From: Planctomycetota bacterium
GTDB lineage: Bacteria > Planctomycetota > UBA8742 > UBA2392
DNA: 64,000 nt
Direction of reading: 5' to 3'
Assembly (NCBI GenBank): GCA_019186845.1
Contig: JABARW010000063.1
Coordinates: 26,337-90,336 of the forward strand
Below the pieces are notes generated by a model, which saw nothing but the letters and a program-made list of their open reading frames with translations, searched no databases and was not told the origin of the DNA. A program made the translations under genes and the position numbers. Below, piece by piece: positions 8,677-54,506 of the stretch (position 1 is the first letter of the stretch; each line of letters starts with the position of its first letter).

Positions 8677-9768
<1,092 letters not shown>

Positions 9769-9803
9769 GGCCTGATTCTACAAGCCGCGGAGGCAAAAGG
9801 GGC

Positions 9804-20787: not shown

Positions 20788-23649
20788 ATGCCGCGTCTGT
20801 TGATTGAAAAAGGGCCGGACCGAGGCAAAAGCCTGACGCTGAAGTTGGGCGACCAGGCCGTCGTGGGGCGCGACGCCCAGGCCAACCTTCAGCTGTCCGA
20901 CGTCATGTGCTCGCGCAAGCACTTCCTGATCGCGAGCAAGGGCAGCGTGTACGGCCTCAAGGACCTGGGTTCGGCCAACGGCACCCAGGTCAACGGCAAA
21001 ACCGCCGACGGCCCCGTCAAGCTGGCCCACGGCGACATGATCCAGTGCGGCGAGACCCTGCTTTCCTGGCTGGCCGACGAGTCAGACGCCAGGCAGGGCG
21101 GCCTGATCGGCCAGCAGATCGGCGGCTACCGCATCGAGATGCGCCTGGGCCGCGGCGCCATGGGCACCGTCTACAAGGCCATCCAGCTCTCGCTGGGCCG
21201 CATTGTCGCGCTCAAGGTGCTCTCGCCTGACCTGGTCAAAGACGCCAAATTCTGCGAGATGTTCCTCAAGGAAGCCCGGGCCGCGGGCGGCCTCAACCAT
21301 CCCAACATCATCCAGGTCTATGACGTCGGCGAGGAAAAGGGTCAGTACTACTTCTCCATGGAATTCGCCGCCAAGGGCAGCGTGCTGGATCTGCTCAACA
21401 GCGCCAAGCGCATCGAACTGCTGCGCGCCGTGGTCATTATCAAGGACGCCTGCCGCGCCCTGGACTACGCCGAGCGCAAGGGCCTGGTGCACCGCGACAT
21501 CAAGCCCGACAACCTGATGGTGATGGACGACGAAATCGTCAAGCTGGGCGACCTGGGACTGGCCATGAGCGCGCAGGAACTGCAGGGCGAGCAGGCCGGC
21601 GTTTTCGGCACGCCGCACTACATTGCGCCTGAACAGGCCATGGGCAAGCCCATTGACCACCGGGCCGACATCTACGCCCTGGGCGCGTCGTTCTATCGCA
21701 TCCTAACGGGCCAGACCCTGTTTACGGGCCAGACTGTCAAGGAAATCCTCAAGAAGCAGGTGCGCGACCCTCACCCGCCCGTCACGACACACCTGCCCGA
21801 TTGCCCGCCGGCCATCGTCACCATCATCGACAAGATGCTGGCCAAGAACCCGGCCGAGCGCTACCAGCACGCCAGCGATGTGCTCAACGACCTCGAAAAC
21901 TGGCAGTCCCTGGCCAGCAAGAAGGGAGGCGTGCAGCCCGCAGCCTTTGCCAAGGCGGTCAAGGCCCCCGGCGCCGAACTTCAGGAACAGATGGTGGCCT
22001 CCGCCCAGCGCCGCAACCTGGCCCTTGCAGCCATTGCCGCCGTCGTGGGGGTGGCGGCGCTCTCCATCATGGTCTGGGTGTTCTTTTTCAGTGACAGCCC
22101 CACGCCCAACACCAACGTGGCCGAGGCCAACAATACGCCGGCCAACCTGCCCCCCGCCAATTCCGGCAATGGCGGCGGCACGACCGCTCAGCTCACGCCC
22201 GAGCAGGAAAGCGCCAACCGCAAGCTCCAGCAGGCCATCGGCGCGGCACAGCTCTCCAGCAACAAGGGCGATCACGCCGCCGCCATTGCCATTCTTGAGA
22301 AGGCCCTCAAGGACAACGCCCTGGCGACAGAAAGCGCCCAGGCGGAAGCGCGCAAGTACCTTGAGCAGGTCAAGCTCAAGGCCGAGCAGGAAGGCCAGTC
22401 CGAACAGGCCATGCGCGAGGAGTGGTCTGAAACGCAACGGCACAAGGCGGCCAAAATCGAGGAGTACAAGTACAAGGCGGCTGACGACATCCTGCGCGGC
22501 TTCATTGAAAAGCACGCCGAAGTCCAGCACCCCGGCAAGAAAAAAATCTGGGACGACGCCGACGCCTACTGGCGCGCCCAATTCTGGGAGGATGTCAAGC
22601 GCCACATCGCCGCTTTGCGCCAATGGGTGGTCAAGCAGAGCGAGCAGGCCATCCTCGAGCAGGACCTGGAAAAGCGCCTCGCGATCTTCGAGGCCGCACA
22701 GTCAAAGGCACAAGGCGCCTTTGACGCCTGCGACCACGAAGACTCGCGCAAAGAGCTCAAAAAAATCCTCGATTCGGTCACGACCAACCTGGACATCGTC
22801 AAGCGCAGTATCTCCGATGAAAAGCGGCGCGTGATCGAACAGGCACTGGCCGAGTGCGAGCAGGCCGTGACTGATCTCTGCACCTCCGTGGGCAACGACA
22901 TCCAGCGCGGCGACTTCCGCTCGGCCATGTCGCGCGTGGACAACTACGAGAAGTCCGACAAGAACTGGAACCAGTACAAAGCAGACCCCCGATTTGCAGG
23001 CGTGGGCGAAGTCCTGCGCCGCCGCCGCGAGCAGACGCGCCATGAGCTGGAGGCCCTGCGCGCCTTGGGCGCGGGCGGCCGCGGTGCCCTGACTTCGGCC
23101 CCCAAACAGGCGGAACTGCTCAAACAAAAGCCCTGGCCCAAGGCCGCCGCCGACCTTTTCGGCTCCAAGGATGCGCGCTTCCGCATGGACGTCCAGGACG
23201 CCGCCGGCGACCGCCAGTTTACGCTCACGGTCTTCGTGGGCTCGAACAAGAGTGAATGGAGCGCGGGCGACTTCGCACCCAGCGGCAGCCGCAGCGCCGC
23301 CGGCCTGGCCGCGGCCATCACGCATCTCGCGCTCAACGACGACACCCTGCGCGCGGCATTGCTCCAGCCGGGCAGCGTCAAGGGCGACCCCCCGCTCGTG
23401 GCGGGGCTCTGGGCCTGGCTGGCGGAACTGGGCCACACCTATGAGATTTTCGCGCTGATGGACAGTTGCTATGCCCAGGCGCCGGTCGCCGACCCCGGGC
23501 GTGCCGTGTTCCGCGAATACATGGCTTACGCGCTCAAGGTACAGGCCCGCGACGAGTTGAATCGCGGCAACACCGCGCGCAGCGAGGATCTGATCCAGCG
23601 CCTGAATTCCGACGAGTTCGCGGGCACGCGTGCCCGCACCGCGAAGTAG
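20788..23649 (+). CDS. FHA-domain Ser/Thr protein kinase with TM helix and long helical C-terminal region
   Basis: N-terminal FHA (VVGRD..SRKHF..LKDLGSANGTQVNG). Hanks kinase (GRGAMGTVYKA..VALK..HRDIKPDNLM..DLGLA..GTPHYIAPE). TM (LALAAIAAVVGVAALSIMVWVFFF). About 500 aa helical tail. Confidence 0.85.
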   Translation: MPRLLIEKGPDRGKSLTLKLGDQAVVGRDAQANLQLSDVMCSRKHFLIASKGSVYGLKDLGSANGTQVNGKTADGPVKLAHGDMIQCGETLLSWLADESDARQGGLIGQQIGGYRIEMRLGRGAMGTVYKAIQLSLGRIVALKVLSPDLVKDAKFCEMFLKEARAAGGLNHPNIIQVYDVGEEKGQYYFSMEFAAKGSVLDLLNSAKRIELLRAVVIIKDACRALDYAERKGLVHRDIKPDNLMVMDDEIVKLGDLGLAMSAQELQGEQAGVFGTPHYIAPEQAMGKPIDHRADIYALGASFYRILTGQTLFTGQTVKEILKKQVRDPHPPVTTHLPDCPPAIVTIIDKMLAKNPAERYQHASDVLNDLENWQSLASKKGGVQPAAFAKAVKAPGAELQEQMVASAQRRNLALAAIAAVVGVAALSIMVWVFFFSDSPTPNTNVAEANNTPANLPPANSGNGGGTTAQLTPEQESANRKLQQAIGAAQLSSNKGDHAAAIAILEKALKDNALATESAQAEARKYLEQVKLKAEQEGQSEQAMREEWSETQRHKAAKIEEYKYKAADDILRGFIEKHAEVQHPGKKKIWDDADAYWRAQFWEDVKRHIAALRQWVVKQSEQAILEQDLEKRLAIFEAAQSKAQGAFDACDHEDSRKELKKILDSVTTNLDIVKRSISDEKRRVIEQALAECEQAVTDLCTSVGNDIQRGDFRSAMSRVDNYEKSDKNWNQYKADPRFAGVGEVLRRRREQTRHELEALRALGAGGRGALTSAPKQAELLKQKPWPKAAADLFGSKDARFRMDVQDAAGDRQFTLTVFVGSNKSEWSAGDFAPSGSRSAAGLAAAITHLALNDDTLRAALLQPGSVKGDPPLVAGLWAWLAELGHTYEIFALMDSCYAQAPVADPGRAVFREYMAYALKVQARDELNRGNTARSEDLIQRLNSDEFAGTRARTAK

Positions 23650-26735: not shown

Positions 26736-29700
26736 TCAGGCGCAGAGCCTGCGGCGCATTGCAACGGCCAGCGCGCAGACCAGGCCTGCCAGAACCAGCC
26801 AGGAGCTGCCCTGGCCGGTGGTGCAGCCGGCTTCTTCCTCTTCCTCTTCCAGCACGGTGATAGCCAGGGTGTGAGGCACAGAGCAATCCTGGCCGCCGTT
26901 GGCAACGCCGCCATCGTCCATCAGCACCAGGCTGATCTGGGCGCTGCCTTTGGCCCCGCGCCGCACGGTGAAGCTCAGGGTACCGTCCTGGGCCACCGCG
27001 GGCTGAACGTCAAAGAGGCCGGGGTTATCGTTGGCGAGCACGGCAAAGCCCAGCACCTGGGAGGCTTCGTTGGCGGCCCCGCTGTGCATGCCCTGGGCCC
27101 ATCCGCTGAGGCTGATTGCGCCGGCGTTGTTCTTCACCTGCACGTTGGCGCCGGGCGTGAAGACCGGGGCATCGTTGACCTCCAGCACGGCGATCTTGAA
27201 GTGCTGGGTGGGCGAGGCCAGGCTGGCTGGATTGACACCGTAGGTGACTTCTTCGAGCACCACCTCGAAGTACGCCACGCCATGAGCATCGGGCAGCAGG
27301 GTGAAGGTGAGATCGCCGGTGAAGACATCGATGGAGGGCGCCACGGCGAAGAGCTGCACGTTGTTGAGCTGTGAGACCACGAACTGGATGTTCTGAACTC
27401 CGTTGCCCGGGCCGCTGGAGATGCTGGTGGCCCAGCCGCTGAGGGTCACCGCCAAGCTGTCCTCCAGGACAGTTACGTCGGCGCCCTTGACGAAGCTTGG
27501 CGCATCATTGACGGGATTGATGACGATTTCGAACTGCTGGCCCGCGGACGTGTCCTGGCCGCCGTTGGCCGTACCGCCGTCATCGTAAAGCTCCACACTA
27601 AGCTTGGCGCTGCCCCAGGCGTTGGCCGCGGGCTCGAACTCCAGCGTGCCGTTGGCAAGGATCTGGATGTAGGCAAACAGCGAGGGATTGTTGGAGGAAA
27701 TCTTGAAGCCCACGGTTTGGCCGGACTCGTTGGCCGGACCGGCGCTGATGTTCGTGGCCCAGCCGGAGAATGACTGGGGACCGCAGTCCTCCTGCAGAAT
27801 GATGTCTGCACCCTTGCTGAAAGACGGCGCGTCGTTGATCTCGCTGATCCGGATGCGCAGCGTATACGCGGCCGAGGTGTCGGCCCCGCCGTTGGCGGTG
27901 CCGCCGTCGTCCTGAAGCTGGACCGTCACGTCGCACGCCCCATAAGCGTTTGGCGCGGCCTGGAAGGTCAGATCTCCCTGGGCATTGATGATCACGCCAC
28001 CTGTGAACAGCGAGGGATCCGACATGGAAACCACCACAAACGTGAGCATCTGGCCCGACTCGCCTGCACCCGCATCGATGCCCTGAGCCCAGCCCGTAAC
28101 CGTGACCACGCCCGCGTCCTCATTCACACTCACGTCCTGGCCCGGGGTGAAATAGGGCGCATCATTCACAGGCTGAATCACGATCGACACCGTCGCGGCC
28201 GAGGTGTTCCCCGACGGGTCCTGCACTTCATAGTCAAAGCTGTCGGTGCCGAAGAAGTCCGCGTCGGGCATGTAGTCAAAGCTGCCGTCGGCCTTGAGGA
28301 CCAGCGTGCCGTGCGAGGGGGCCGTCTTCATGGTGATTGCAAGGCTGTCGCCGTCGGCGTCATAGTCATTGGCCAGCACACCCTGCACGCCTGAACTCAA
28401 GGGCTGGTCTTCGTTGCTGGTGTAGTGATCAGCCACGGCCACCGGGGCATCGTTGACGTTGAGAATGTCCAGGATGACCGCCACGACTGCGCTGTCGGCG
28501 CTGCCGTCATTCAGCTTGTAGCTGAAGCTGTCAGTGCCAAAGAAGTCAGCGTCGGGCATGTAGTCGAAGCTGCCGTTGGGCTGAAGCGTCAGAGTGCCGT
28601 GACTGGGACCGCTGACCAGGACCACCGTGAAAGGGTCGCCATCAACGTCGTAGTCGTTGACAGTCACTCCGCCGCCGTTGATGTGCAACAGAGTGTCTTC
28701 CGTACCCTGATGCATGTCTGACACGGCCACGGGGGCGTCATTGACCGGATTCACCGTCAGGCTGACCATGACGACGTTGCCGTAGACCGTGCCGTCATAG
28801 GCGCGATAGCTGAAGGCGTCGGCGCCGTGATAGTCCGGGTCAGGCGTGTAGCTGAAGCTGCCGTCGGCGTTGAGCGTCAGCGAGCCTTGGGCCGGGCCGC
28901 TGACGAGCTGCACCGTCAGGGTGTCGCCGTCAACGTCAGAGTCGTTGGCCAGAAGGCCGGGCGCCGCGACGTTCAGAGGGGTGTCTTCGTTTGTCACGTG
29001 GACGTCCGCCACCGAGATCGGGGCATCATTGGCCGCCGTCACGGTGAGCGTGACGTTCACAGTGTTGCCCGCCTGGTAGCTATCATGGGCGCGATAGCTG
29101 AAAGAGTCGGCGCCGCTGTAGTCCGGGTCAGGAATGTAGCTGAAGCTGCCGTCGGCGTTGAGCGTCAGCGAACCGTGGGCCGGACCGCTGACAAGCTGCG
29201 CCGTCAGGGGGTCGCTGTCGCCGTCGCTGTCGTTGGACAACACGCCGGGCGCGGCAACGGAAAGCGTGCCGTCCTCGCTGACGCTGTGGCTGTCGGCCAC
29301 GGTCACAGGCGCGGAGTTGGGCGTGCCCTCGATGGAGAAGAGCCAGGTGTAGCCGCCCATGATGGACCAGGAGGCGCCGCCATCGGTGGAGAACGCCCAC
29401 AGTGCCGTGCCGATATTGGAGTGGTGGTTGCCGATGCTGCTGCCCGCCGCAGCCGACATCACGTACCAGTATTGCGTGGAGCTGCTGAGGTAGGCGGGCG
29501 ACATGGCGACGTTGACATAGCCGCTGCCCGAGACCGTCGCACTGCCGGAGGAAATCAGCGCACCGGGCTGGCCGCCGTTATTGGCGCGGATGGCCAGGTT
29601 GATGGTGCCGCTGCCACTGAGACTGGCAGAAATCTGCGTGATGATACCGCTTTGCGTGGGCGTGATGCGCTCAGCGTAGTGCCAGGTGTCAGAGGGTCCG

Positions 29701-29867
29701 CCGGTGCCGTAGTGCGTGCCGGCCGTGCTGTCATAGAGCGTCGCGGCACAGAGCGCGGGCGAGAGCGCCATCAGGGCCGCCAGGCAAAGCAGGCGCGGGG
29801 CCCAGCCTGCGGGCGGCCGCGCCGGGGCGCGACGGTAGCAGCACGAAACATCGGGATGAGAAGACAT
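26736..29867 (-). CDS. Large repeat-containing surface adhesin (cadherin-like / tandem ~95-aa Ig-like repeats) with Cys-containing C-terminal sorting-type tail
   Basis: ATG 29867 is preceded by GGAGGA. Signal peptide (APRLLCLAALMALSPALCAA). Eight NDAP-delimited repeats. Tail EEEEEEAGCTTGQGSSWLVLAGLVCALAVAMRRRLCA. Confidence 0.8.
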   Translation of the reverse strand: MSSHPDVSCCYRRAPARPPAGWAPRLLCLAALMALSPALCAATLYDSTAGTHYGTGGPSDTWHYAERITPTQSGIITQISASLSGSGTINLAIRANNGGQPGALISSGSATVSGSGYVNVAMSPAYLSSSTQYWYVMSAAAGSSIGNHHSNIGTALWAFSTDGGASWSIMGGYTWLFSIEGTPNSAPVTVADSHSVSEDGTLSVAAPGVLSNDSDGDSDPLTAQLVSGPAHGSLTLNADGSFSYIPDPDYSGADSFSYRAHDSYQAGNTVNVTLTVTAANDAPISVADVHVTNEDTPLNVAAPGLLANDSDVDGDTLTVQLVSGPAQGSLTLNADGSFSYTPDPDYHGADAFSYRAYDGTVYGNVVMVSLTVNPVNDAPVAVSDMHQGTEDTLLHINGGGVTVNDYDVDGDPFTVVLVSGPSHGTLTLQPNGSFDYMPDADFFGTDSFSYKLNDGSADSAVVAVILDILNVNDAPVAVADHYTSNEDQPLSSGVQGVLANDYDADGDSLAITMKTAPSHGTLVLKADGSFDYMPDADFFGTDSFDYEVQDPSGNTSAATVSIVIQPVNDAPYFTPGQDVSVNEDAGVVTVTGWAQGIDAGAGESGQMLTFVVVSMSDPSLFTGGVIINAQGDLTFQAAPNAYGACDVTVQLQDDGGTANGGADTSAAYTLRIRISEINDAPSFSKGADIILQEDCGPQSFSGWATNISAGPANESGQTVGFKISSNNPSLFAYIQILANGTLEFEPAANAWGSAKLSVELYDDGGTANGGQDTSAGQQFEIVINPVNDAPSFVKGADVTVLEDSLAVTLSGWATSISSGPGNGVQNIQFVVSQLNNVQLFAVAPSIDVFTGDLTFTLLPDAHGVAYFEVVLEEVTYGVNPASLASPTQHFKIAVLEVNDAPVFTPGANVQVKNNAGAISLSGWAQGMHSGAANEASQVLGFAVLANDNPGLFDVQPAVAQDGTLSFTVRRGAKGSAQISLVLMDDGGVANGGQDCSVPHTLAITVLEEEEEEAGCTTGQGSSWLVLAGLVCALAVAMRRRLCA
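26850..29318 (-). repeat. Intragenic tandem domain repeats of the adhesin (4 x ~95 aa type A, then 4 x ~110 aa type B)
   Basis: Type A: N[SD]AP..VAD..EDT.L.V..PG.LANDSD.DGD.LT..LVSGP..G.LTLNADGSF.Y.PD.D..G.D.F.Y. Type B: NDAP.F..G..V.V.ED......SGWA..I..G..NE..Q...F.V..N....F......I...G.L.F......G.A...V.L.DDGG.ANGG.D.S. Confidence 0.8.
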
Positions 29868-30094
29868 GGTTCCTCCATTCAGCAGTAAGGCCGCCCGCAG
29901 TCCGGTGGCGCCGCAAGGCGCGCGTGATCTCGAAGGCACGCGCGGCGGGAAGCGCGCGTGTCGGAGAGCAACGTACACCGAACATCAAAAACCGAAAAAC
30001 CAGAGAGTTTGAACAAGCGCAAGGTTTGCGTTTTTTCAGCGTGCCGGGACGTCGAGAATTTGCTTTGCTAATAAGACTGCGTCTCATTCTCATT

Positions 30095-31446: not shown

Positions 31447-31914
31447 CTACAGGAAAAGGCCCGCCAGCGTCGAGGGCACGTTGGCGACAAAGGCCACCGC
31501 AAAGCCATAGAAGAGGGCGGGGGCGGGCGCGCGGCAGCCCTCTTTGCCCCAGCGCATGATGGCCAGGGCCACGAGCAATCCCTCGATCGCGACCACGCAG
31601 GACTCGGCAATCACCAGCCATGTGATGTAGACGGGGTCCATTCCTGCGGGCACCAGCGGCGCCAGATAACTCGGGTCAGGCTCGAACCAGGGGAAGTAGT
31701 ACCAGAGCAGAGGGTGCGTCACCAGATTGACGAAGAGCGCGAGCGGAAGGGGAATCCACCAGCGCCGGCAGACCCAGCAGAGCAACAGAAAGTAAATCGG
31801 CCCCTCGATGCTCTGGGTGTGCCAGTGGGCGCGCCACCACAGATCCAGGGGGTTGTAGTCGTTGAGCACCCAAGGAGCGAGCCACTCGGGCACCATGACG
31901 GGGTACTCGCTCAT
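31447..31914 (-). CDS. Hypothetical polytopic membrane protein (155 aa, Trp/Pro-rich)
   Basis: ATG 31914 overlaps the stop of the upstream gene (ATGA at 31911-31914). About 4 hydrophobic helices. No recognised family. Confidence 0.5.
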   Translation of the reverse strand: MSEYPVMVPEWLAPWVLNDYNPLDLWWRAHWHTQSIEGPIYFLLLCWVCRRWWIPLPLALFVNLVTHPLLWYYFPWFEPDPSYLAPLVPAGMDPVYITWLVIAESCVVAIEGLLVALAIMRWGKEGCRAPAPALFYGFAVAFVANVPSTLAGLFL

Positions 31915-32885
31915 GGCGCGGGCCTCGCGCCACTGACAGCGAAGTAGGAAAGAAACGCCAGCTCCAGCCAGCCGTGAAACAGCACGATGGTGAGATAACC
32001 CCAGTTGGCCATGGAGGCGTTCTCAAGTGAAAGGGCAGGCCAGGCCCCGCTGAAGTCCACAAAGGCATAGGCGGGAACGGCCAGCACGCCCACCACAATC
32101 AGCAGCAGACCGGTCACTCCAAAGTCAGAGCGGAGCGATTTCAGGTCCTGGACGAAGGTCGTGGGCGGAGCCGTTTCATGCAGTTCCTGCGGCATGAGGC
32201 GCAACCAAACGGTGTAGTGCATGGCTTGGGCGAAGATGTATGTCTGCACCACGCGAAGCGCCATGGCATCCGGCAGGCCGGGCGCCAGCGCCATGGCCCA
32301 ACCCTCGGCCTCAAACCCCCACACAGGGGCAGCCCAACCCGCGAAGCTCGCCGTGATGCCATCCAGAACGCCGGCCATGATGGCCAAGCAGCAGGCAAGG
32401 AAAAACAGACTGGCCAAGGCTGCCTTGAACCCACCCCCTGCCCGCACTGCAAACAGAAGCCAGATGCCTACTGCTATAAAATTGTGCAGGTGCGCCAGGG
32501 CCAGGCCCGACTCCCTTGGCCAGTACAGGGCCGCGCTGCCAATGGCCGCCACCGCCGCGCCCGTCACCAGGCGCCGCCAGAGTCTTCCCGGCGCGGCAAC
32601 CACCCCGAGCATCACAGCCGCAACGCCAAAGGACACCTCGGCCAAGGCATGGCGCGGCATGTCAAACATCACGGAAACTCTCAGGGCAGTCTGGGCCAGC
32701 AGAGGAATCAGCAGCAAGGCCACAAACCAGCGACGCAGGGCAATGGGCGGCCGCACCAACAGATAGCGAATGTCTCCTACTATATGAGGGGCGCCCAGAA
32801 GGATGGGAGCGAGCAATAGCATCCAGAGGGGAGCCACAGCCGTAATAGCCAAAGCCACGGACATTGAGGCAATAGCCAGGATCAT
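31911..32885 (-). CDS. Hypothetical polytopic membrane protein with four His-containing TM motifs
   Basis: Track ORF opens on TTG at 33002; first ATG is at 32885 (MILAIASMSVALAI..). About 8 helices. Motifs LGAPHIVGD, LAHLHNF, QAMHYTVW, VLFHGWLE. Start uncertain (32885-33002). Confidence 0.5.
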   Translation of the reverse strand: MILAIASMSVALAITAVAPLWMLLLAPILLGAPHIVGDIRYLLVRPPIALRRWFVALLLIPLLAQTALRVSVMFDMPRHALAEVSFGVAAVMLGVVAAPGRLWRRLVTGAAVAAIGSAALYWPRESGLALAHLHNFIAVGIWLLFAVRAGGGFKAALASLFFLACCLAIMAGVLDGITASFAGWAAPVWGFEAEGWAMALAPGLPDAMALRVVQTYIFAQAMHYTVWLRLMPQELHETAPPTTFVQDLKSLRSDFGVTGLLLIVVGVLAVPAYAFVDFSGAWPALSLENASMANWGYLTIVLFHGWLELAFLSYFAVSGARPAP

Positions 32886-32988
32886 CAGCCGCGTGTGGCG
32901 GTCGTGAATGCAGTGGCGCCCCAAGGAGGTCTTGGCGGATATGCGCCAGAACTCCCGCCGAACGGAGTCAGCGAGGTTGACAGGTAGG

Positions 32989-33183
32989 CTAAGCCCGGCC
33001 AAGGCGCCACCTCCAGAAGATGCGCAGCCCCAGCAATGCTGCTGTAACTAGAGCCACGGCGGCCAGCGTGAAATTACTTTCGTCACCAGTTGTGCAATTG
33101 CCCTTGCGCGGAGGCACATCGGCAAGGGCTACCGTGCATTGCACGGCCAGCATCATCATTGCCAGCAAGAGTCGAAAGATCAT
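32989..33183 (-). CDS. 64-aa mini-protein: signal peptide directly followed by CTTG-TM-Arg C-terminal tail
   Basis: ATG 33183 (track ORF opens on TTG 33204). MIFRLLLAMMMLAVQCTVALA|DVPPRKGNCTTGDESNFTLAAVALVTAALLGLRIFWRWRLGRA. The tail is colinear with the adhesin tail at 26739-26831. Confidence 0.5.
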   Translation of the reverse strand: MIFRLLLAMMMLAVQCTVALADVPPRKGNCTTGDESNFTLAAVALVTAALLGLRIFWRWRLGRA

Positions 33184-33542
33184 CCGCAAGTTCCTCGCAG
33201 GCAAGTGGACGAAAAAGAAGATGGAGCGGTTCCGGCTGACCTGGGTGGGTTTAGATGTCGGGAAGTCAGGCGTTTGGGAACCAAAGGGTGCCGCTGGTAT
33301 GAAGCATTGTGTTTCGTTTTGGTTCCAAAACCAGCATTACCGGGTCATGGTTTTGTGTTACGGCCCGGTGGCGACGGAAATAAAACTGCGTGGTTCGAAT
33401 CTGTAAGTATCTATTTTATAATGTTTTGCGACGACACACTGGGGCGGTAACCGGCGCGGGCATCAAGAAATTTCAGTTTGGCACGGACAACGCTTATGCT
33501 TCGGCGCACTGTAAACAAGTCCACCAACTTCGGGAGATAGAG

Positions 33543-34364
33543 ATGCATAGGTTTCTACTGGGAGTCGCGGCTCTGGCGATCGCCTTCTGCGCGAACGCGC
33601 TGAGCGCTCAGGCTGCGGCCAACCCGCAGCTTTCCAGCGACGACACCGCCAAGACGGACACCCATGACCGTCCGGTGGGTGGCGTCAAGATGAAGCTGCC
33701 GGCGCCTGCCGTTGCGCCTCCGACGCAGCCCACACCTCCTCCTCCGCCCCCGGCCCCGACGCCGGTTCCGCCCCCGGAGGATGATGACATTCCCCCGACG
33801 GAGACGCCTCCGGCTCCTCCGCCGCCGGAAGATCCCCCGACCTACTATGACGAGCCTGTGCAGGGCAAGTTCGCCTTCCTGCTCGACTCCTCGGGTTCCA
33901 TGTACGGCTCGCGCATTGCGTCCGTCCGCCAGGAGACGGTGGCCGTCATCCAGCAGCTCACGGAAGACGACGAGTTTGACTGCAACACCTACGGCGGTCA
34001 GCACCCCTCGCCCTGGTACACCGTGTTCCTCTGGGGCTCCCTGCAGCCCGCGACGGACGGCAACAAGAGCGCGGCCATTGCCTGGGTCAACGGCCCTGCC
34101 ACGAACCCCGGCGGCGGCACACCGACCTATGAGAACCTGCAGCGCTCCTGCCAGGTTTACCCCGCCGACCTCGACAAGATGTTCCTGCTGACGGACGGCT
34201 ATCCCAACAGCGGCCCCGGCCCGATTCTCTCGGCCTTCCCCGGCTGGTGGTCGAAGTTCACCGACTGCACCCTGGTCTGCATCTGCATCGGTGGCGTCGG
34301 TTCAGCGCAGCAGTTCATGCAGCAACTGGCGGCCCTGGCTGGCGGCACCTACATCCAGCGGTAG
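33543..34364 (+). CDS. Secreted vWA-domain protein with Pro-rich linker, copy 1
   Basis: ATG 33543 (MHRFLLGVAALAIAFCANALSAQA signal peptide). PPTQPTPPPPPPAPTPVPPPEDDD linker. MIDAS DSSGS in FAFLLDSSGSMYG, later TPTY and LLTDG. Confidence 0.75.
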   Translation: MHRFLLGVAALAIAFCANALSAQAAANPQLSSDDTAKTDTHDRPVGGVKMKLPAPAVAPPTQPTPPPPPPAPTPVPPPEDDDIPPTETPPAPPPPEDPPTYYDEPVQGKFAFLLDSSGSMYGSRIASVRQETVAVIQQLTEDDEFDCNTYGGQHPSPWYTVFLWGSLQPATDGNKSAAIAWVNGPATNPGGGTPTYENLQRSCQVYPADLDKMFLLTDGYPNSGPGPILSAFPGWWSKFTDCTLVCICIGGVGSAQQFMQQLAALAGGTYIQR

Positions 34365-34904: not shown

Positions 34905-35732
34905 ATGAACAGGTTCTTCCTCGGTGTTGTGGCTCTCGCCTTGGCGTTCTGCGCCAACGCCCTGAGCGCTCAGGCCGCAGCCAACCCTGAGCTGTCCAGT
35001 GATGACACCACCAAAACGGACACCCATGACCGTCCGGTGGGTGGCGTGAAGATGAAGCTGCCGGCGCCTGCTGTGCAGCCGCCCACGCAGCCCACGCCTC
35101 CTCCTCCGCCCCCGGCCCCGACGCCGGTTCCGCCCCCGGAGGATGACGACATTCCCCCGACGGAGACGCCTCCGGCTCCTCCGCCGCCGGAAGATCCCCC
35201 GACCTACTATGACGAGCCTGTGCAGGGCAAGTTCGCCTTCCTGCTCGACGCCTCGGGTTCCATGTACGGCTCGCGCGTTGCCTCTGTCCGCCAGGAGACG
35301 GTGGCTGTGATCCAGCAGCTCACGGAAGACGACGAGTTTGACTGCAATGCCTACGGCGGGCAGCACCCCTCGCCCTGGTACACCGTGTTCCTCTGGGGCT
35401 CTCTGCAGCCCGCGACGGACGGCAACAAGAGCGCGGCCATTGCCTGGGTCAACGGTCCTGCCACGAACCCCGGCGGCATGACCCCCACCTATGCCTGCCT
35501 GCAGCGCTCCTGCCAGGTCTACCCCGCCGACCTCGACAAGATGTTCCTGCTGACGGATGGCTATCCGAACATCACCGGCGACGCCTCGGCCATTCTGGGC
35601 GCCTTCCCCGGCTGGTGGTCGAAGTTCAGCGACTGCACCCTGGTCTGCATCTGCATCGGTGGTGTGGCATCGGCCCAGACCTTCATGCAGCAACTGGCGG
35701 CTTTGGCCGGCGGCACCTACATCCAGCGATAA
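34905..35732 (+). CDS. Secreted vWA-domain protein with Pro-rich linker, copy 2
   Basis: MNRFFLGVVALALAFCANALSAQA... Roughly 90% aa identity to copy 1. MIDAS DASGS. Differences cluster at GYPN[ITGDASAILG]AFPGWW. Confidence 0.75.
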   Translation: MNRFFLGVVALALAFCANALSAQAAANPELSSDDTTKTDTHDRPVGGVKMKLPAPAVQPPTQPTPPPPPPAPTPVPPPEDDDIPPTETPPAPPPPEDPPTYYDEPVQGKFAFLLDASGSMYGSRVASVRQETVAVIQQLTEDDEFDCNAYGGQHPSPWYTVFLWGSLQPATDGNKSAAIAWVNGPATNPGGMTPTYACLQRSCQVYPADLDKMFLLTDGYPNITGDASAILGAFPGWWSKFSDCTLVCICIGGVASAQTFMQQLAALAGGTYIQR

Positions 35733-42408: not shown

Positions 42409-44574
42409 GTGACTATAGCTTGCCCCACCATGCCTGAAGTTTCGCCCGAGGCAACAGTCAAACCCAGCGGCTACATGCGCCTGCCGCTACGCCTGCGCCG
42501 CCTCATCGCCGACGCGCTGGCCCTGGGCGCCTTTAGCTGCGCCTGGGTCGCCGTGTTCAGCGCCTCCGACATCGCCGGCCTCTGGCTGCGGCGCCCCGCG
42601 CTGCTGGGTCTGGCGCTGGTGCTGATCGTCAATTGGCTGGCATGGCGGCGGCTCCCGCGGCACCTCGGCCGCATCACACGCCAGGGTCTCTTTGTTTCCG
42701 GCGCCGGTCTGGGTCTGCTGTGCATGACCTTTCATCTCGCGGGAGGCGTGAACACCCTGGCGGGTCTGGCCGGCCTGCTGGCCTGCATGGCTTTGCGCAA
42801 CAGCTACGACGATCCGGACCTCGCCGCCGAAGCCGCGCTGCGGGCCGCCCGCAGCGGCGATCTGCGCGGCCCGGTGACGGTGATACGGGACAACATCGAG
42901 AACCTGGCCCTGAGCCTGGTGGTCGTGGTGCTGGTGTGGCACTTCTGCCTTGAGGCCTTCCGCATTCCCACGGGTTCCATGCTGCCGACATTGTACGGCG
43001 ATCCTGTGTGGGGCGACCGCGTGCTGGTGGACAAGTTCATCTATGAGTTCCGCGACCCCGAGCGCTGGGAGCCTACCGTCTTCCGCTATCCGTTGAGGCG
43101 CACGGACCCTTACGTCAAGCGCATCATCGGCATGCCGGGCGAGCAGGTGCTGATCGCCCAGGGAGACATCTACCTGCGGCGCCACCCCGGCGCGGAAGTG
43201 GAGTTGCTGCAGAAGACCCCCGCGGCCCGCGAAGTACTCTGGTACCCCGTCACGGGGCCAGTCACCGAGAAAGGTCAGTTCCTGAAGTGGTTCGCTCGCG
43301 AAGGCGAGGCCGACTTCGACAGCGGTGCCATCAAGCTGGGCAAGGGCGCCGTCGTGACTTTCCCCAAGGGCGACGACGGCAAGCCGGGCGACGTGCGCGA
43401 TCATGATCCCAGCGGCGAGGGCTTCTCCCCTGAAATCGGCTACAACCGGCGCGTTGTGGGAGATCTGCGTACGCGCGGCGCCATCGCGTTCACCGATCGA
43501 TTCTGGGCCGAAATCACACTGGTGCGCGACACCGAGAGTTACGTGCTGCGCCTGTCTTCGCCCGCTGAGGACCACTACCGCTATGTGGACGTGGCCCTGA
43601 CCCACCGCAGCACGGCACCCGGTACGATGGAAACGGGCCTTGACCTCGGTGACATGAAGCGCGTGGACATTCCCGGCGGCAGCACCAGCCGCAAAACCCT
43701 GAGCTTTGACCTGAGCCTGGCCGACGGCCAGCTCAGTGTGACGCTTTGGGGCAACCAGTCCCTCTGGGGCTCCCCCGAGTCCTGGACCCGGGCCGTGAGG
43801 GTCGGCTCGCCCATGCTGGACCTGCTGCGCGCCCAACCCAAGGACAGGCCTTTGAGCGAGGTGGCCCAGGCCCTCACGGAGCCGACCCCACGCCGGGGGC
43901 GCGTCTCCTTCAGCGGCGGCGCCCTGAGCGATGCGGAGTCAGGCCACAGCCCCCAGCTCATCGTGCACGGCATCGAGCGCGACGTCTATTACCTCGGGCG
44001 CATCCTCGACACCGAAGTCGGAGGCAAAACCGAACAGCGGGAGCTTCCCTTCGGCTTCAATCTGGGGCCCGACGAATACCTGGTGCTCGGCGACAACTCG
44101 CCCGGCTCCAAAGACAGCCGCTTCTGGACCGCCATCGACCTCGTGACCCAGGACGGTACTCTATTCACAGGTGGCGTGGACGACGAAGGCCAAATCATCG
44201 CCTCCCTGCTCAACAGTTTTGATGCCGGGGAACAGCTGGTGTTCAAGGATGCCGCCTCGGGCCGGACCGCCCCCTGCAGCGCGCTGCGTTCGCTTACACG
44301 CGTGGCCCGGTTCAGCCACAAAGAGCGTGGCAGCCAGATGCCCACGGACGCCGAGATTCTGAAGAACACCCTGGAAGGCCTCAAACGCGCCGCCCAAAAG
44401 CAGAACCTGACGCGGCTGCACTTCATTACGGAAGGGGGCGGCGTCGTGTACGTGCCGGTGGACGAAATCCGGGAGATTCGTGTGCGGGCCGTGGCGGGTG
44501 TCAAGCGGGAGCTGTTTGTGGGCAAGCCCTTTGCTGTGTTTCTTTGGCCCCATCGCATGAAGCTGATTCAATGA
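42409..44574 (+). CDS. lepB: Atypically large signal peptidase I (S26) with N-terminal polytopic domain and long insertions
   Basis: Catalytic Ser box FRIPTGSMLPTL, Lys box YVKRIIGMPGE, box E LVLGDNSPGSKDSRFW about 340 aa later. About 170 aa of TM helices precede the catalytic domain. Start (GTG 42409, ATG 42430 or 42475) uncertain. Confidence 0.75.
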   Translation: MTIACPTMPEVSPEATVKPSGYMRLPLRLRRLIADALALGAFSCAWVAVFSASDIAGLWLRRPALLGLALVLIVNWLAWRRLPRHLGRITRQGLFVSGAGLGLLCMTFHLAGGVNTLAGLAGLLACMALRNSYDDPDLAAEAALRAARSGDLRGPVTVIRDNIENLALSLVVVVLVWHFCLEAFRIPTGSMLPTLYGDPVWGDRVLVDKFIYEFRDPERWEPTVFRYPLRRTDPYVKRIIGMPGEQVLIAQGDIYLRRHPGAEVELLQKTPAAREVLWYPVTGPVTEKGQFLKWFAREGEADFDSGAIKLGKGAVVTFPKGDDGKPGDVRDHDPSGEGFSPEIGYNRRVVGDLRTRGAIAFTDRFWAEITLVRDTESYVLRLSSPAEDHYRYVDVALTHRSTAPGTMETGLDLGDMKRVDIPGGSTSRKTLSFDLSLADGQLSVTLWGNQSLWGSPESWTRAVRVGSPMLDLLRAQPKDRPLSEVAQALTEPTPRRGRVSFSGGALSDAESGHSPQLIVHGIERDVYYLGRILDTEVGGKTEQRELPFGFNLGPDEYLVLGDNSPGSKDSRFWTAIDLVTQDGTLFTGGVDDEGQIIASLLNSFDAGEQLVFKDAASGRTAPCSALRSLTRVARFSHKERGSQMPTDAEILKNTLEGLKRAAQKQNLTRLHFITEGGGVVYVPVDEIREIRVRAVAGVKRELFVGKPFAVFLWPHRMKLIQ

Positions 44575-44741: not shown

Positions 44742-47700
44742 ATGCCCAGACTGGTCTTCAAAAAGGGCGAGCAGGCGCCGGTAGAGATGGCCGGCCCCAC
44801 AGTGCTTGGACGCTCGAGCGACCAGGCCCAGATCGCCATCAAGGACAACCGCCTTTCGCGGGCCCATTGCCGTTTTGAGCCCCGGGAAGACGGCCAATGG
44901 GCCATTGTGGACCTTGGCAGCCAGAATGGCACCTTCCTCAATGGCCGTCGCGTGCGCGAAAGCGTAGTCCGCCCCGGCGACGTCGTTACGATCGGACAGT
45001 GCGACATTCTGTTTGAGGCTACAGGCGGCCCCAGCGGCAGCGACCTGATGGCCGGGGTGGCCAGCACTCGCATCAACGCCACGCCCGCGGGCGGTCCGGC
45101 CATGGAGCCGGCCGAGGACAACCCTAACTCCACACGCACGGTGGTTGCTCCAGCGGCCCTGGCGCTGATTCAGGGCACGCTCAAGGACAAGATTTTCCCG
45201 CTGCTCAAGGACGAATTCGTCATTGGCCGCAAGGCCCCCTCCGACCTGATTCTGGAGGGAGACACCAAGGCCTCGGGCCAGCACGCAAAGATCACCCGCA
45301 AGGACGCCACCACCTGGGTCATCGAAGACCTCAAGAGCACCAACGGCGTGACCGTGAACGGCCACAAAGTGACGGAAGCCGTGGTGCTCAAGAATGGCGC
45401 CAAGATCATTGTTGGCCTTCAGACGTTTCAATTCACGCTGCAGGGCAAGCCGCCGGAAACCACGGGCGTCACGGCGCCCATGAGCGCCAAAGAAGTCCAA
45501 CAGAAGCTGGCCAAGGCCCAGGCGGCTGAGGCGGCCCCGCCGATGGACCTGGGCGACCCGTCCATCGGCGAGAAGAGCGAAACGCTGGACCGTCAGGCCC
45601 TGAACGTCGACGTCAAGGGCGGCGGAGGCGGCGGCCTCATTTTCTCGATTCTTGAAGTTGTACTGGCCCTGGCTGTGGTCGGCATGGTTCTGGGCGGCGG
45701 CTACATGCTGCTTCAGGAGAGTCCCGAGACCGTGGGCGGCGGTGGCACGACCAGCGAATCCCGCGATGGCGGGCTTTTGCAGGCCGCCAATTCGTCCATG
45801 GACAAACTTGACGCCGCCGGCATGCCCGAAGGCTGGAGTTTTGATCCCGTGGGCGGAGACTCCGTCTCCATGACCGAGGCCAGCCGCGGCGGCGCCCAGG
45901 CAGTGCAGCTGACGCGCTTCAACGCAAGCAATTCCATCTCCTATCTGTTCAGCGCTCCCATTGAGGTCAAGGGCATCGGCCTCAAGGCCAGTGTCTTTGC
46001 GGTCAACAGCGAACTCTCGGCCGGGCGCACGGGCACCGCCCTGCTTTCGCTCTTCTGGTACAAGGATTTCCGCGATCCCGCCATCGCCCGCACCCCTCTG
46101 GCTGCGGCCACCAACCTCACCACCTGGACGGAACTCAAGGGCGCATCGGCGGTGCCCCAGGGCGCCAAGTATGTGCGCCTGGCCCTGGGCATCACCGGAA
46201 AGTCCGGCAGCGTCGTATTTGACGACGCCCTGCTTCAGGATGACTCCACAGCGCCCGCAGCGGCCAAAGCCGCCAGCGTCGAGTTGAAGAACCGCCTGCG
46301 CTGGACCCTCGACGAAAACGGAGTGATCTCGCTGCTGGACCGCAGCGTGGTGCTGCTGCGCAACGGTGTGGTCATGCTGCATCAGGCCGACGGCCGCGCC
46401 GATCCCCTGGACCCTCGCCTCCTGCTGCTGGCGCCCCCTGCCGTCATCTCCGGAGAGTCGGGCATCAGCGTGAAGTACCAGTACTTTGACCCCATTGCGG
46501 AAAAGCCCGTCGAGCTGCGCATTGAACTGGGCGAGAATGCCTCACAGGCCACCCTGAACGCCTTGTTCAGCCCTGGCGGCGCTGACAAGGCCGCTTCCCG
46601 CCTGGCCCTGAGTTTCGTGGCCACGCCCGCCTTCGTGCCCAGCGAACTGGTGCGCCTGGAGGGTGAGCGCGTGGCAGACTACCGCCGTGAGATGCCTGAG
46701 GAAGGCCAGCGCATCAACCTTTCCACGGCCCTGGCTGCGGACACCGGCACGGGCAATCGCCTGGAAGCCCTGAACTCGACTTCGCCCCTGTTTGAAGCCC
46801 GGGCCGGCTCGGGCGGACGTGAGCTGTTCTTCCAGGGGCCTGCCACTGTGCAACTGGGTTTCTCGCTGGGCGGCGGCCGCGAAGAACTGGCGCAGCTGGC
46901 GGCCCTGGCTTCCGCCCTTCAGACGGGCGAGACCCAGCTGGACAGGCTGGCCCGCGCCCTGACAATTTTCCGCACCTATCCCTACAACCAGCGCGAGCTG
47001 ACTATCGCCGGCCAGGCCTGCGACAGCGCAGCAACGCACTACAAGCTGCGGCACCTCGAGTTGCGCGACGGCATCAATGTGCCCGACCTGCGCCGCAACG
47101 AGGGGCTCTACATCGCCGCCATGGACGAGTGCATCAGCGTGGCCGAGCAATTGCGCGCCCGCCAGCCTGAATGGGCCGATCAGTTCCTGCCGCTGTTGCG
47201 CGGCCTTGAAACCCCCAGCATGAGCGACGTGACGCAGCGCGCGGCGCGCCAGGCCCGCGGCGCGCTGGAAGACCTGCTGCGCAGTGCCGACGATTTCGAG
47301 GCCCTTTCGCGCGTGGCCAAGCGCGCCCGCTTCTGGCTGCGCGTCTCTATTGAGCAGCGCGACAGCGGCAACCTGCTCGCCAGCGCCCAGGATTTTCTGG
47401 AAAGCGGCCTTTCAACCCAGGGGCGCATCAAGCTGCGCACCATCGTTGAAAGTTACCCGCGCTGCCTCAATGGCATCTCGGCCAAGTCGCTCATGGTCGA
47501 ACAGGCGGAAGCCGTCTATGCCGAGGCGCTCCAGCGCCGTGCCGAGGGCCTCAATCAGATTGCCGGCGCCCTGCGCCAGCGCTGCAAGGAGTACCTGGAC
47601 CTGGTGGAAGCCAACCTGCTGACAAGCCCCCGCGTGCTCACCACTGAAGAGCGCGGCTGGCTGACCCGTCCCGACGAGGGCTCCGCTTCGGACCCCCGCA

Positions 47701-47768
47701 ACTGGCTGGAATTGGAAAACAAGATTGCGGACCGCATCAAGCTGCTGAGGGAGAAGCTGGCCAAGTAG
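44742..47768 (+). CDS. Twin-FHA membrane protein with extracytoplasmic jelly-roll-like and helical domains (1008 aa)
   Basis: FHA1 (VLGRS..SRAHCRF..IVDLGSQNGTFLNG). FHA2 (VIGRK..SGQHAKI..IEDLKSTNGVTVNG). TM (LIFSILEVVLALAVVGMVLGGGYMLL). Then a CBM4/9-like beta region ending GSVVFDDALLQDD. Confidence 0.7.
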   Translation: MPRLVFKKGEQAPVEMAGPTVLGRSSDQAQIAIKDNRLSRAHCRFEPREDGQWAIVDLGSQNGTFLNGRRVRESVVRPGDVVTIGQCDILFEATGGPSGSDLMAGVASTRINATPAGGPAMEPAEDNPNSTRTVVAPAALALIQGTLKDKIFPLLKDEFVIGRKAPSDLILEGDTKASGQHAKITRKDATTWVIEDLKSTNGVTVNGHKVTEAVVLKNGAKIIVGLQTFQFTLQGKPPETTGVTAPMSAKEVQQKLAKAQAAEAAPPMDLGDPSIGEKSETLDRQALNVDVKGGGGGGLIFSILEVVLALAVVGMVLGGGYMLLQESPETVGGGGTTSESRDGGLLQAANSSMDKLDAAGMPEGWSFDPVGGDSVSMTEASRGGAQAVQLTRFNASNSISYLFSAPIEVKGIGLKASVFAVNSELSAGRTGTALLSLFWYKDFRDPAIARTPLAAATNLTTWTELKGASAVPQGAKYVRLALGITGKSGSVVFDDALLQDDSTAPAAAKAASVELKNRLRWTLDENGVISLLDRSVVLLRNGVVMLHQADGRADPLDPRLLLLAPPAVISGESGISVKYQYFDPIAEKPVELRIELGENASQATLNALFSPGGADKAASRLALSFVATPAFVPSELVRLEGERVADYRREMPEEGQRINLSTALAADTGTGNRLEALNSTSPLFEARAGSGGRELFFQGPATVQLGFSLGGGREELAQLAALASALQTGETQLDRLARALTIFRTYPYNQRELTIAGQACDSAATHYKLRHLELRDGINVPDLRRNEGLYIAAMDECISVAEQLRARQPEWADQFLPLLRGLETPSMSDVTQRAARQARGALEDLLRSADDFEALSRVAKRARFWLRVSIEQRDSGNLLASAQDFLESGLSTQGRIKLRTIVESYPRCLNGISAKSLMVEQAEAVYAEALQRRAEGLNQIAGALRQRCKEYLDLVEANLLTSPRVLTTEERGWLTRPDEGSASDPRNWLELENKIADRIKLLREKLAK

Positions 47769-53825: not shown

Positions 53826-54506
53826 ATGGTCGCCAGGCGCGGCTTCACCCTGATTGAACTCATGATCGTGATCGCGATTATCGTCGTGATTGCGGGCGTG
53901 CTCGTGGCCAGCTTCGGCGGCGTATTCAGCAAGCGTGATGACGCCGTGGCCAAGACCACGATCGAGACTCTGAGCTCCAACATCCAGAGCTTCCAGGGTC
54001 GCTGGCACAGCTACCCGCCGGGCAGCGTGGAGGCGCTTTCGGTCATGGCGCGCTCGGCCATTCCGGTGGCCGATCCCAATGAAGTCAACTGCGGCATCGA
54101 GGCGCTGGTGCTGGCCTTGCGGTCAAGGAAGAACGGCGGGGCCTACCTCTCCGCCGATCTTTTCGCCAACGACGAATACCGCAAGAATACCGATGCCGAC
54201 ACGCTCATGGACGACCCCTTCGACATCGACGGTTCACGGGACCTGTTCGAGATCGTCGATCCCTGGGGCACGCCCTATGTCTATGTGAACATGAACGAGC
54301 TGCGCAACGGCAAGGTCAAGCAGAGCATTCAGCTTGAGGACGGCACGGTGGTTGAACTCAACCTCACCGAGATGCAGGAGAAGCTCAAGCACCCCACCAC
54401 CGGCCAGTACCCGACAGGCTACGCCATCTGGAGCTTCGGCGCGGACAAGAAGAACGATTACGGACGCGGTGACGACGTCACCAGCTGGCCCAAGTACAGC
54501 GACTAG
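53826..54506 (+). CDS. Type II secretion / type IV filament major pseudopilin (GspG-like)
   Basis: Prepilin cleavage/methylation motif RRG|FTLIELMIVIAIIVVIAGVL (Glu at +5). C-terminal SFGADKKNDYGRGDDVTSW resembles the GspG signature. Confidence 0.75.
   Translation: MVARRGFTLIELMIVIAIIVVIAGVLVASFGGVFSKRDDAVAKTTIETLSSNIQSFQGRWHSYPPGSVEALSVMARSAIPVADPNEVNCGIEALVLALRSRKNGGAYLSADLFANDEYRKNTDADTLMDDPFDIDGSRDLFEIVDPWGTPYVYVNMNELRNGKVKQSIQLEDGTVVELNLTEMQEKLKHPTTGQYPTGYAIWSFGADKKNDYGRGDDVTSWPKYSD

Follow-up and report, generated by a model that had tools for sequence, protein, structure and literature searches.

A gene for a 64-residue protein, here termed the mini, heads an operon with two polytopic membrane proteins, A2 and A1, in a 64,000-nucleotide (nt) stretch of a Planctomycetota bacterium genome (contig JABARW010000063.1; the window, numbered from its first letter). 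The cassette is a new variant of the Cys-type C-terminal sorting signals in a new phylum, coupled to three protein families that Pfam and NCBIfam do not describe. Our favoured reading, held tentatively, is that the mini represents a dedicated minimal client of an A2/A1 module that matures anchors of the MYXO-CTERM class, at a step distinct from cleavage by CPBP-type proteases.

The three-gene cassette and its conservation

The mini gene (64 amino acids (aa) plus stop) lies on the minus strand at 32989..33183, as given by the open reading frame (ORF) list, hydropathy and orthologues. The ORF list extends it to 32989..33204 from an alternative TTG; the ATG at 33183 yields the 64 residues quoted in an earlier, sequence-only reading of this DNA exactly, and the same start Met is shared by the aligned orthologues. 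A Shine-Dalgarno-like hexamer, GAGGAA, was read from the sequence at 33191..33196 (minus strand), ending 6 nt ahead of this ATG. The product comprises a signal-peptide-like segment (residues 1-21; nt 33121-33183), the ectodomain DVPPRKGNCTTGDESNF (residues 22-38; nt 33070-33120), a helix of the TLAAVALVTAALLGL type (residues 39-54; nt 33022-33069) and the basic tail RIFWRWRLGRA (residues 55-64), all on the minus strand; a Kyte-Doolittle scan placed its two hydrophobic segments from residues 1 and 37. NCTTGDESNF, a 16-residue uncharged run and the basic end together form a tripartite architecture at the extreme C-terminus, as MYXO-CTERM requires. The signal peptide, DVPPRKGNCTTGDESNF, hydrophobic helix and Arg-rich end proposed from the sequence alone were thus confirmed, and the strand, which had not been given, is minus.

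A2 is a 363-aa membrane protein with about ten predicted transmembrane (TM) helices (31911..33002, minus strand), and A1 is a 155-aa four-helix membrane protein (31447..31914, minus strand). The mini stop overlaps the TTG start of A2 by 14 nt, and the A2 stop and A1 start overlap as ATGA. The earlier claim that the mini heads an operon with two uncharacterised polytopic membrane proteins is therefore borne out by overlapping, translationally coupled frames. A class II aldolase gene follows 62 nt past A1, and another 482 nt on lies the gene for a 1080-aa cadherin-like/Big_9 adhesin (26736..29978, minus strand), which has an orthologue with a tail of the same class at locus L001. The adhesin gene shares the strand of the mini and begins 3.0 kb downstream of it, beyond the aldolase gene, in agreement with the distance of about 3 kb proposed before. 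The last 31 residues of the adhesin (nt 26739-26831, minus strand) form the tail AGCTTGQGSSW-LVLAGLVCALAVAM-RRRLCA, in which the middle segment is the TM helix.

The window matches the metagenome contig L086 at 100% and shares about 90-93% overall DNA identity with the Planctomycetota metagenome-assembled genome (MAG) of isolate PLA1 (QEVF01000013.1). A word-indexed search of 5.8 billion proteins returned ten A2 relatives and two A1 relatives, and their contigs carry the same triad of 62-64-aa, 351-aa and 154-aa genes with overlapping junctions. The triad with overlapping stops and starts was found in at least five planctomycete-type lineages, which answers the earlier proposal to look for orthologous mini and membrane-protein triads in related genomes. 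Together with genome and metagenome scans, these contigs gave nine more distinct sequences in which the mini protein is conserved. In the alignment of the ten distinct minis, A21, D22, P25, G28, C30, R54 and R58 are invariant, and the consensus consists of a signal peptide, A|DVPPxKGxC[ST][TA][GS][DE][DE], a helix and an Arg-rich end.

The mini ORF is regarded as a genuine gene, because its reading frame is conserved in relatives that keep the membrane genes; loss of the ORF where those genes persist, raised earlier as a reason to doubt it, was checked for and was not what was found. That this 64-aa ORF is not a gene and resembles the adhesin tail by chance is highly improbable. The ORF is short, its G+C content at third codon positions (0.65) lies below that of the neighbouring genes (0.74-0.87), and a scan around the operon for sigma-70-type promoters found none (a terminator scan was likewise uninformative). 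However, the codon-position G+C of 0.60/0.49/0.65 is coding-like, the ten distinct orthologues keep frame, architecture and the seven invariant residues at 26-56% identity, and the Shine-Dalgarno-like site is accompanied by a conserved overlap with the A2 start; the conservation was counted as refuting this alternative already.

A pattern scan with one genome per species found an A2 relative in 85 species, including two Planctomycetota and a handful labelled as Pseudomonadota or unclassified; nearly all others are Myxococcota. About 69 of the 80 kept A2 loci are from Myxococcota, for example Sorangium, Chondromyces, Nannocystis, Archangium, Myxococcus and a Bradymonadia MAG. An A1 gene was detected directly downstream of A2 in at least 56 of 86 loci, as counted with a hidden Markov model (HMM) built on six A1 sequences only. 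From the other side, three of the four A1-anchored look-ups showed a gene of about 340 aa without Pfam domains that overlaps the A1 start by 4 nt. An exhaustive profile search gave 2985 A1 representatives at 50% clustering; among those listed, the top matches are small proteins, and the named ones are called 'hypothetical protein' or, rarely, carry a generic transporter label. No gene family beyond the triad is conserved around the pair, the largest other one being lineage-specific and present in 19 of about 115 loci.

The mini is also the most variable part of the cassette between MAGs of the same species. A low-identity patch with sharp edges (about 32990..33550 of the window against L006 9450-10014; 66-78% identity) covers the mini gene and the upstream intergenic region, from the mini stop to the start of a divergent gene with a VWA domain. 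On its flanks, the window and the PLA1 MAG agree at 99.2% for A2, 100% for A1, 100% for the aldolase gene and 97% for the VWA gene; the mini is 56% identical as protein and 71% as DNA, its codons differing synonymously at 16 places and non-synonymously at 28. The LADVPPRKGxCTxGDES core is retained, whereas the signal-peptide core, helix and basic tail are replaced. The only other nearby gene that evolves fast encodes the adhesin (85% identical between the MAGs). The patch points to an imported allele rather than relaxed constraint, because its synonymous divergence is far above that of the flanks. Diversity-generating mutagenesis was considered and rejected; the substitution spectrum has no adenine bias, so recombination is more likely. 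Since the helix was replaced while A2 stayed 99.2% and A1 100% identical, the anchor helix seems to need no matching change in either protein. This lends mild support to a generic anchor with a recognised ectodomain, and such variation would be surprising in a subunit helix that is tightly packed.

The Cys-type tail and the first-gene family

The tails were scored with the MYXO-CTERM model (NCBIfam TIGR03901.2, curated cutoff 20 bits). The cutoff is exceeded by the mini of L107 (32.8 bits), the cadherin adhesin of L001 (25.6 bits), the first gene of L049 from a Polyangiaceae MAG (21.9 bits) and the cargo protein of L093 (21.7 bits); two planctomycete minis tested scored 15.8 and 18.2 bits, below the cutoff. 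The window adhesin tail also matches the tail of a MYXO-CTERM equivalog. The signature Cys is present as C30 in all ten minis, and in the adhesin or other large-protein tails of the window, L001, L003, L015 and L093. We therefore place the CTTG tail among the Cys-containing tripartite signals that Haft described, as a divergent flavour found in planctomycetes, C-[STE]-[TA]-[GS], and not as a new kind of signal. Membership in this recognised class is supported by the relatives above the curated cutoff. The window mini matched the LPXTG_anchor model alone (TIGR01167, cutoff 15.9), at 17.8 bits (tail alone) and 16.2 bits (whole protein), and the adhesin tail matched it at 16.8 bits. These matches were judged generic because only T-G, the helix and the basic end align; an L-P is missing, the window encodes no sortase, and an LPXTG cell-wall anchor was therefore rejected.

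MYXO-CTERM has been reported from Myxococcota and Bradymonadales only (10.1101/2023.06.07.544157), and our literature search found no paper placing it in Planctomycetota. Cys-type C-terminal anchors are hereby extended to a phylum without an earlier report. The whole window was scanned in six frames for C..G followed by a hydrophobic run and a basic end; the only convincing tails were those of the mini and the adhesin, and a third match (CWSG in a 91-codon ORF) was discounted as spurious.

In several lineages, large proteins with a Cys-type tail adjoin the A2/A1 pair. In the window the cadherin adhesin lies 1.5 kb from A1, and its homologue in L001 lies 2.1 kb from A1 with different intervening genes. 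An unclassified 977-aa protein in L003/L004 is convergent with A1 and overlaps its 3' end. A protein of about 1100 aa with Golvesin_C, Amidase_3 and fn3 domains is adjacent to the pair in L015 (6549-9989), and its homologue in L093 (11851-15168) lies within about 0.8 kb. These three types of protein, encoded at 0-3 kb from the pair, resemble one another in the tail alone, which is the pattern that Haft used to pair JDVT-CTERM with its enzyme. L009, L015 and L093 represent a delta-type lineage with such neighbours; L009 is labelled 'Deltaproteobacteria bacterium HGW-14'. As a separate observation, the combination of Golvesin_C, an N-acetylmuramoyl-L-alanine amidase domain and fn3 in the L015/L093 proteins would amount to a cell-wall hydrolase anchored at the surface.

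The gene directly upstream of A2, here called the first gene, encodes a small secreted protein of 90-350 aa with a TM segment and an Arg tail in about 48 of 80 genome loci by our count. The myxobacterial products are ordered as signal peptide, AD[IV]PP, a domain with 4-6 Cys, often a Gly/Ser/Thr-rich linker, and a tail such as DDGGC[SA]xS, helix and RRRR. In 46 of 52 distinct first-gene products, a Cys is located 3-12 residues ahead of the helix or belongs to a G-G-C with which the hydrophobic run begins. Pfam and NCBIfam searches with the myxobacterial first-gene proteins revealed no family; the Cys-rich domain gave one weak Antifungal_pept match (E 0.011), below the cutoff. The shared mature start and tail indicate that the planctomycete mini is a reduced member of the same family, from which the Cys-rich domain and linker appear to have been deleted. 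The earlier view of a free-standing tail without cargo thus gives way to a family conserved from the first mature residue (D-V-P-P).

Minis also arose independently elsewhere, in L107, Sorangium and L102. The L107 mini (ADVAPKCGCSIDGAGVGAGW, helix, RYRRR) consists of a signal peptide and MYXO-CTERM only, ahead of the same membrane protein. The mini of the second cassette copy in Sorangium (L025/L034; ADVIPPANGGGGPD, helix, RRRR) has no Cys, and L102 encodes two tandem Cys-less minis (L102a/b). Tandem first genes, two in each case, were observed in L072 and L102. In L023 (a Myxococcus sp. MAG, about 9290-9911), two tandem paralogues also lie upstream of A2, the first of which has no membrane anchor and terminates in a Lys-rich tail. 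Cassette loci of two kinds occur in Sorangium, one at about 3.7 Mb and the other at about 1.6-2.0 Mb, as seen across genomes and not confirmed within one strain; one kind has the Cys-less mini (L025/L034) and the other a Cys-rich MYXO-CTERM first gene (L060/L065/L066/L070/L074).

The membrane proteins A2 and A1 compared with known systems

Across 98 distinct A2 sequences, H73, R79, H173, Q259, H262, Y263 and W266 are invariant, and D77, H171, N174, P271, H343 and E347 are near-invariant. Across 110 A1 sequences, the invariant residues are W26, T33, E37, P39, T66, H67, P68, W71, E104, E111, N145 and S148. AlphaFold2 gave confident models, of A2 with about ten TM helices (predicted local distance difference test, pLDDT, 80.9; predicted template-modelling score, pTM, 0.81) and A1 with four long helices (pLDDT 88.5). 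The topology was derived by hand from the AlphaFold2 helix boundaries and the positive-inside rule. According to this, A2 would be N-in/C-in and A1 N-out/C-out, with the invariant polar residues at mid-membrane depth. Polar residues so placed would be typical of intramembrane enzymes or of ion/metal sites, and of nothing more specific.

The window A2 and A1 gave no Pfam or NCBIfam match at E<=1, and the myxobacterial members are likewise without a family; neither did single scans of 11 A2 and 110 A1 members at E<=10 reveal one. The mini family, A2 and A1 are thus three protein families without a Pfam or NCBIfam description. A2 and A1 profiles matched none of the PDB sequences. The best Foldseek matches in the PDB had E-values of 0.07 (A2) and 1.0 (A1), all listed TM-scores were <=0.36, and chains of Rce1, rhomboid, Lgt and LspA were not among the top 50 matches listed.

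Known enzyme families were considered and rejected. CPBP/Rce1-type proteases (PF02517, NF040914; EExxxR, FxxxH, HxxxN) gave no HMM match among the recurring families, the conserved motifs are different, and the listed fold matches include no chain of the MmRce1 kind. An exosortase or archaeosortase (Cys-Arg-His triad) gave no HMM match either, and neither A2 nor A1 has an invariant Cys. For a rhombosortase (GxSG Ser and His in a six-TM rhomboid fold) there was no HMM match and no rhomboid among the listed fold matches; Lgt and LspA had no LGT or Peptidase_A8 HMM match, nor any PDB-profile or fold match. A2 shares GxPHxxxD with the Brp/Blh beta-carotene dioxygenases (PF15461), but hhalign of the A2 profiles against a Blh sequence aligned only 12-20 columns around this motif, without significance (E 0.22 and 0.58); the Blh sequence used had been validated on PF15461 (1.6e-43). 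MBOAT_2 was the commonest weak Pfam match of A1 (4 of 110 members, best E 0.015) and was treated as noise. A protein with A1 fused to a C-terminal rhodanese domain (P0263, 268 aa, with a CSIGWRS active-site loop) and long N-terminal extensions of A1 members were set aside as clues to function, being single cases and possible gene-call artefacts. In Chondromyces crocatus (CP012159.1; L117 5035-8027), an A1 paralogue (WP_050429825.1) adjoins two small DUF5985 membrane proteins as well as a squalene/phytoene synthase, and about 5.5 kb off lies a rhodanese gene.

One likeness is to MYXO-CTERM and the CPBP myxosortases MrtX/MrtC/MrtP (10.1101/2023.06.07.544157; PMC11980579), which also involve a tripartite Cys-motif, helix and Arg tail on Sec-exported proteins. 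Relatives of the mini and adhesin pass TIGR03901, and A2/A1 occur mainly in MYXO-CTERM taxa. However, the host of the cassette is a planctomycete, its motif is C-[ST]-[TA]-[GS] instead of GCGC, the window tails score below the cutoff, and the membrane proteins are not CPBP enzymes. Moreover, the tail gene is in one operon with the membrane proteins, whereas a myxosortase is reported never to lie beside a client (PMC11980579). JDVT-CTERM/MrtJ, a dedicated one-client system, resembles the cassette in its Cys-tail protein beside a polytopic membrane protein, its sporadic occurrence outside one phylum, and unrelated passenger domains that share the tail alone. Its neighbour is a recognisable CPBP protease, whereas the cassette has two novel families; the L091 mini reaches 16.7 bits against a JDVT cutoff of 27, and the mini helix has no DP motif.

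In GlyGly-CTERM/rhombosortase, PEP-CTERM/exosortase and PGF-CTERM/archaeosortase, the anchor is likewise removed or exchanged by an intramembrane enzyme, and dedicated clients are sometimes adjacent (10.1101/2023.06.07.544157). The cassette, in contrast, has no rhomboid match, no GxSG/His pair, no exosortase match and no Cys/Arg/His triad, and its tail motif differs. The CAAX pathway (prenyltransferase, Rce1, ICMT) and Lgt/LspA are similar as multi-step systems with one juxtamembrane Cys and separate polytopic enzymes for modification and cleavage. The sizes of A2 (about ten TM) and A1 (four TM) are reminiscent of the pair Lgt and LspA, although A2/A1 share no sequence or fold similarity with the CAAX or Lgt/LspA enzymes. 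The topology of the mini as a substrate would also be inverted relative to lipoprotein signal peptides, and there is no lipobox.

Function of the cassette and other genes of the window

Beyond gene structure, conservation, architecture and neighbourhood, we infer the following steps. The mini precursor would be exported and cut by signal peptidase before Asp22, while the C-terminal helix and Arg cluster would retain it in the inner membrane, with the 17-residue DVPPxKGxC[ST][TA][GS][DE][DE] segment at the periplasmic face. The A2/A1 pair would be an intramembrane enzyme module acting at this face. It might carry out a maturation step on Cys-type anchors, either modification of the juxtamembrane segment or anchor removal. 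Its substrates would be the mini and further proteins bearing this tail, e.g. the neighbouring adhesin, and its step would be separate from cleavage by a CPBP myxosortase. MYXO-CTERM sorting has been proposed to take two steps, of which the cleavage enzyme MrtX alone is known. No enzyme has been identified for modification of the MYXO-CTERM Cys, and the defect of an mrtX deletion is not absolute (PMC11980579), which leaves room for an A2/A1 step; Lgt is suspected by those authors as the lipidating enzyme (PMC11980579). A2/A1 is a concrete candidate gene pair beside a tail-bearing gene, across Myxococcota and in Planctomycetota near Cys-tail adhesins.

Several results weigh against the client reading. 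The window mini and the window adhesin tail had no TIGR03901 match at E<=10, and L007 and L005 carry no large Cys-tail gene within their 7-9 kb flanks. A2 and A1 are dissimilar to the known sorting enzymes in both sequence and predicted fold, and HMM, PDB-profile and Foldseek searches revealed no likeness to a protease or transferase. The A1 paralogue of C. crocatus has no A2 beside it. The occurrence of A2 mostly in MYXO-CTERM-bearing taxa (Myxococcota including Bradymonadia) counts in favour, yet this overlap is weak on its own because many families are Myxococcota-specific; Haft's profiling returned 44 perfect scorers (10.1101/2023.06.07.544157). MrtX alone cleaves MYXO-CTERM in E. coli (PMC11980579); this cleavage can therefore proceed without the pair.

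The first-gene family raises further objections. The mature start D-[VIL]-[PA]-P is common to the products of Planctomycetota and Myxococcota; it was located by a regular expression that already required D-[IVLAS] and a nearby Pro, so the Pro at mature position 4 (51 of 55 products) is the sole independent count. The Myxococcota first genes also share the Cys-rich domain, i.e. their homology extends beyond the tail. A juxtamembrane Cys is absent from the first genes of L025/L034, L102a/b and L059/L109/L112, and A2 and A1 keep all invariant residues there; the Myxococcaceae-type first gene has four Cys, probably all structural, and no MYXO-CTERM match. In addition, the C-T-T of the mini could descend from the first Cys of an ancestral Cys-rich domain instead of a tail motif, because myxobacterial homologues begin ADVPPPDSCTT. 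The two origins are indistinguishable in a 17-residue ectodomain. This qualifies the proposal that the mini and adhesin bear the same tail. In the JDVT-CTERM neighbourhoods, Haft took full-length homology among clustered targets to indicate partners of the mature protein and not sorting (10.1101/2023.06.07.544157); this rule, together with first-gene homology from D-V-P-P onwards, points to a partner of the mature protein. Of the sorting system suggested by the sequence-only reading, the conserved triad, recognised tail class and unrelated Cys-tail neighbours hold, whereas the lack of a known enzyme, homology beyond the tail, Cys-less first genes and MrtX sufficiency speak against it.

Such a partnership, in which the first-gene product works with A2/A1 rather than being the substrate of the pair, is the main alternative and is possible but not probable. 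The product might be a single-pass subunit whose invariant mature D-V-P-P N-terminus is functional, or an ordinary client of a sortase encoded elsewhere whose mature form cooperates with A2/A1; in either case A2/A1 might form, e.g., a membrane complex that handles metals, redox reactions or lipids. The D-[VIL]-[PA]-P start shared by two phyla, the Cys-less first genes beside fully conserved A2/A1, Haft's neighbourhood rule and the sufficiency of MrtX for cleavage all agree with this, translational coupling suggests matched production, and the five invariant His of A2 with Asp and Glu look like a metal site. However, the anchor helix and signal peptide were swapped between strains with A2/A1 unchanged, and the long low-complexity linkers and MYXO-CTERM tails of myxobacterial first genes typify proteins that leave the inner membrane. 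A partner role would also leave the clustering of unrelated large Cys-tail proteins with the pair unexplained. An unlikely alternative is ordinary MYXO-CTERM biology and coincidence: the mini and adhesin would be clients of a CPBP myxosortase elsewhere, and the pair would be linked to them by inherited gene order. Each of the four Cys-type tails has a CPBP enzyme as its established or predicted partner, A2/A1 have no protease signature, and inspection of the host genome was confined to 64 kb. Against this, the first gene and the pair are adjacent with overlapping frames across two phyla in surroundings that differ in every lineage, and a crude motif scan found no CPBP-like gene in the window or any flank. 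A planctomycete myxosortase is likewise an assumption, not an observation, because MYXO-CTERM is reported to be restricted to Myxococcota and Bradymonadales.

The cassette might also export a small peptide or Cys-rich mini-protein (a signal or toxin), which the pair releases or against which it gives immunity; this is improbable. The first gene does vary between strains with identical neighbours, ectodomains are very short in several lineages, and the myxobacterial domain is small, knottin-like in its Cys-richness and the source of the weak Antifungal_pept match. However, the variation lies in the signal peptide and anchor and not in the ectodomain, immunity proteins would be expected to change along with the first gene, which A2/A1 do not, and the constellations of invariant residues look enzymatic.

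The client reading can also be taken further, to A2/A1 as accessory machinery of Cys-type sorting with the first gene as a built-in model substrate, which we consider doubtful. The pair would add an anchor moiety to the juxtamembrane Cys or otherwise modify it, or would remove the anchor independently of CPBP enzymes. Of the planctomycete substrate, nothing would then remain but the signal peptide, a recognition segment of 17 residues and the anchor, which would yield a lipopeptide about ten residues long. In a more radical variant, the free D-V-P-P N-terminus of the anchored mini would be the acceptor for ligation of cleaved cargo. The three families have no Pfam/NCBIfam model or solved structure, and A1, at least, has thousands of members. 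Should the pair prove to be an unrelated membrane complex, the cassette would still be a new and widespread three-component module.

Other genes of the window were also recorded. Upstream of the mini and transcribed divergently from it are two tandem genes (33540-34364 and 34905-35732, plus strand) for secreted proteins that are 91% identical and contain a Pro-rich segment and a VWA domain; in L001, a large VIT-VWA protein is encoded about 4 kb from the triad. Apart from A2 and A1, four or more TM segments were predicted for only two window proteins, one of the CNNM/CorC type and one S26 signal peptidase. The signal peptidase I (S26) domain belongs to a 721-aa protein (42409-44574, plus strand) for which four TM segments were predicted, and which is unusually long for such an enzyme. 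An FHA-Ser/Thr kinase (20788-23649), a double-FHA protein (44742-47768) and a PilM-like/actin-like protein (47785-49443) are encoded on the plus strand, and the FHA/PilM-like cluster lies near a TPR protein and a prepilin-type gene (53826-54506).

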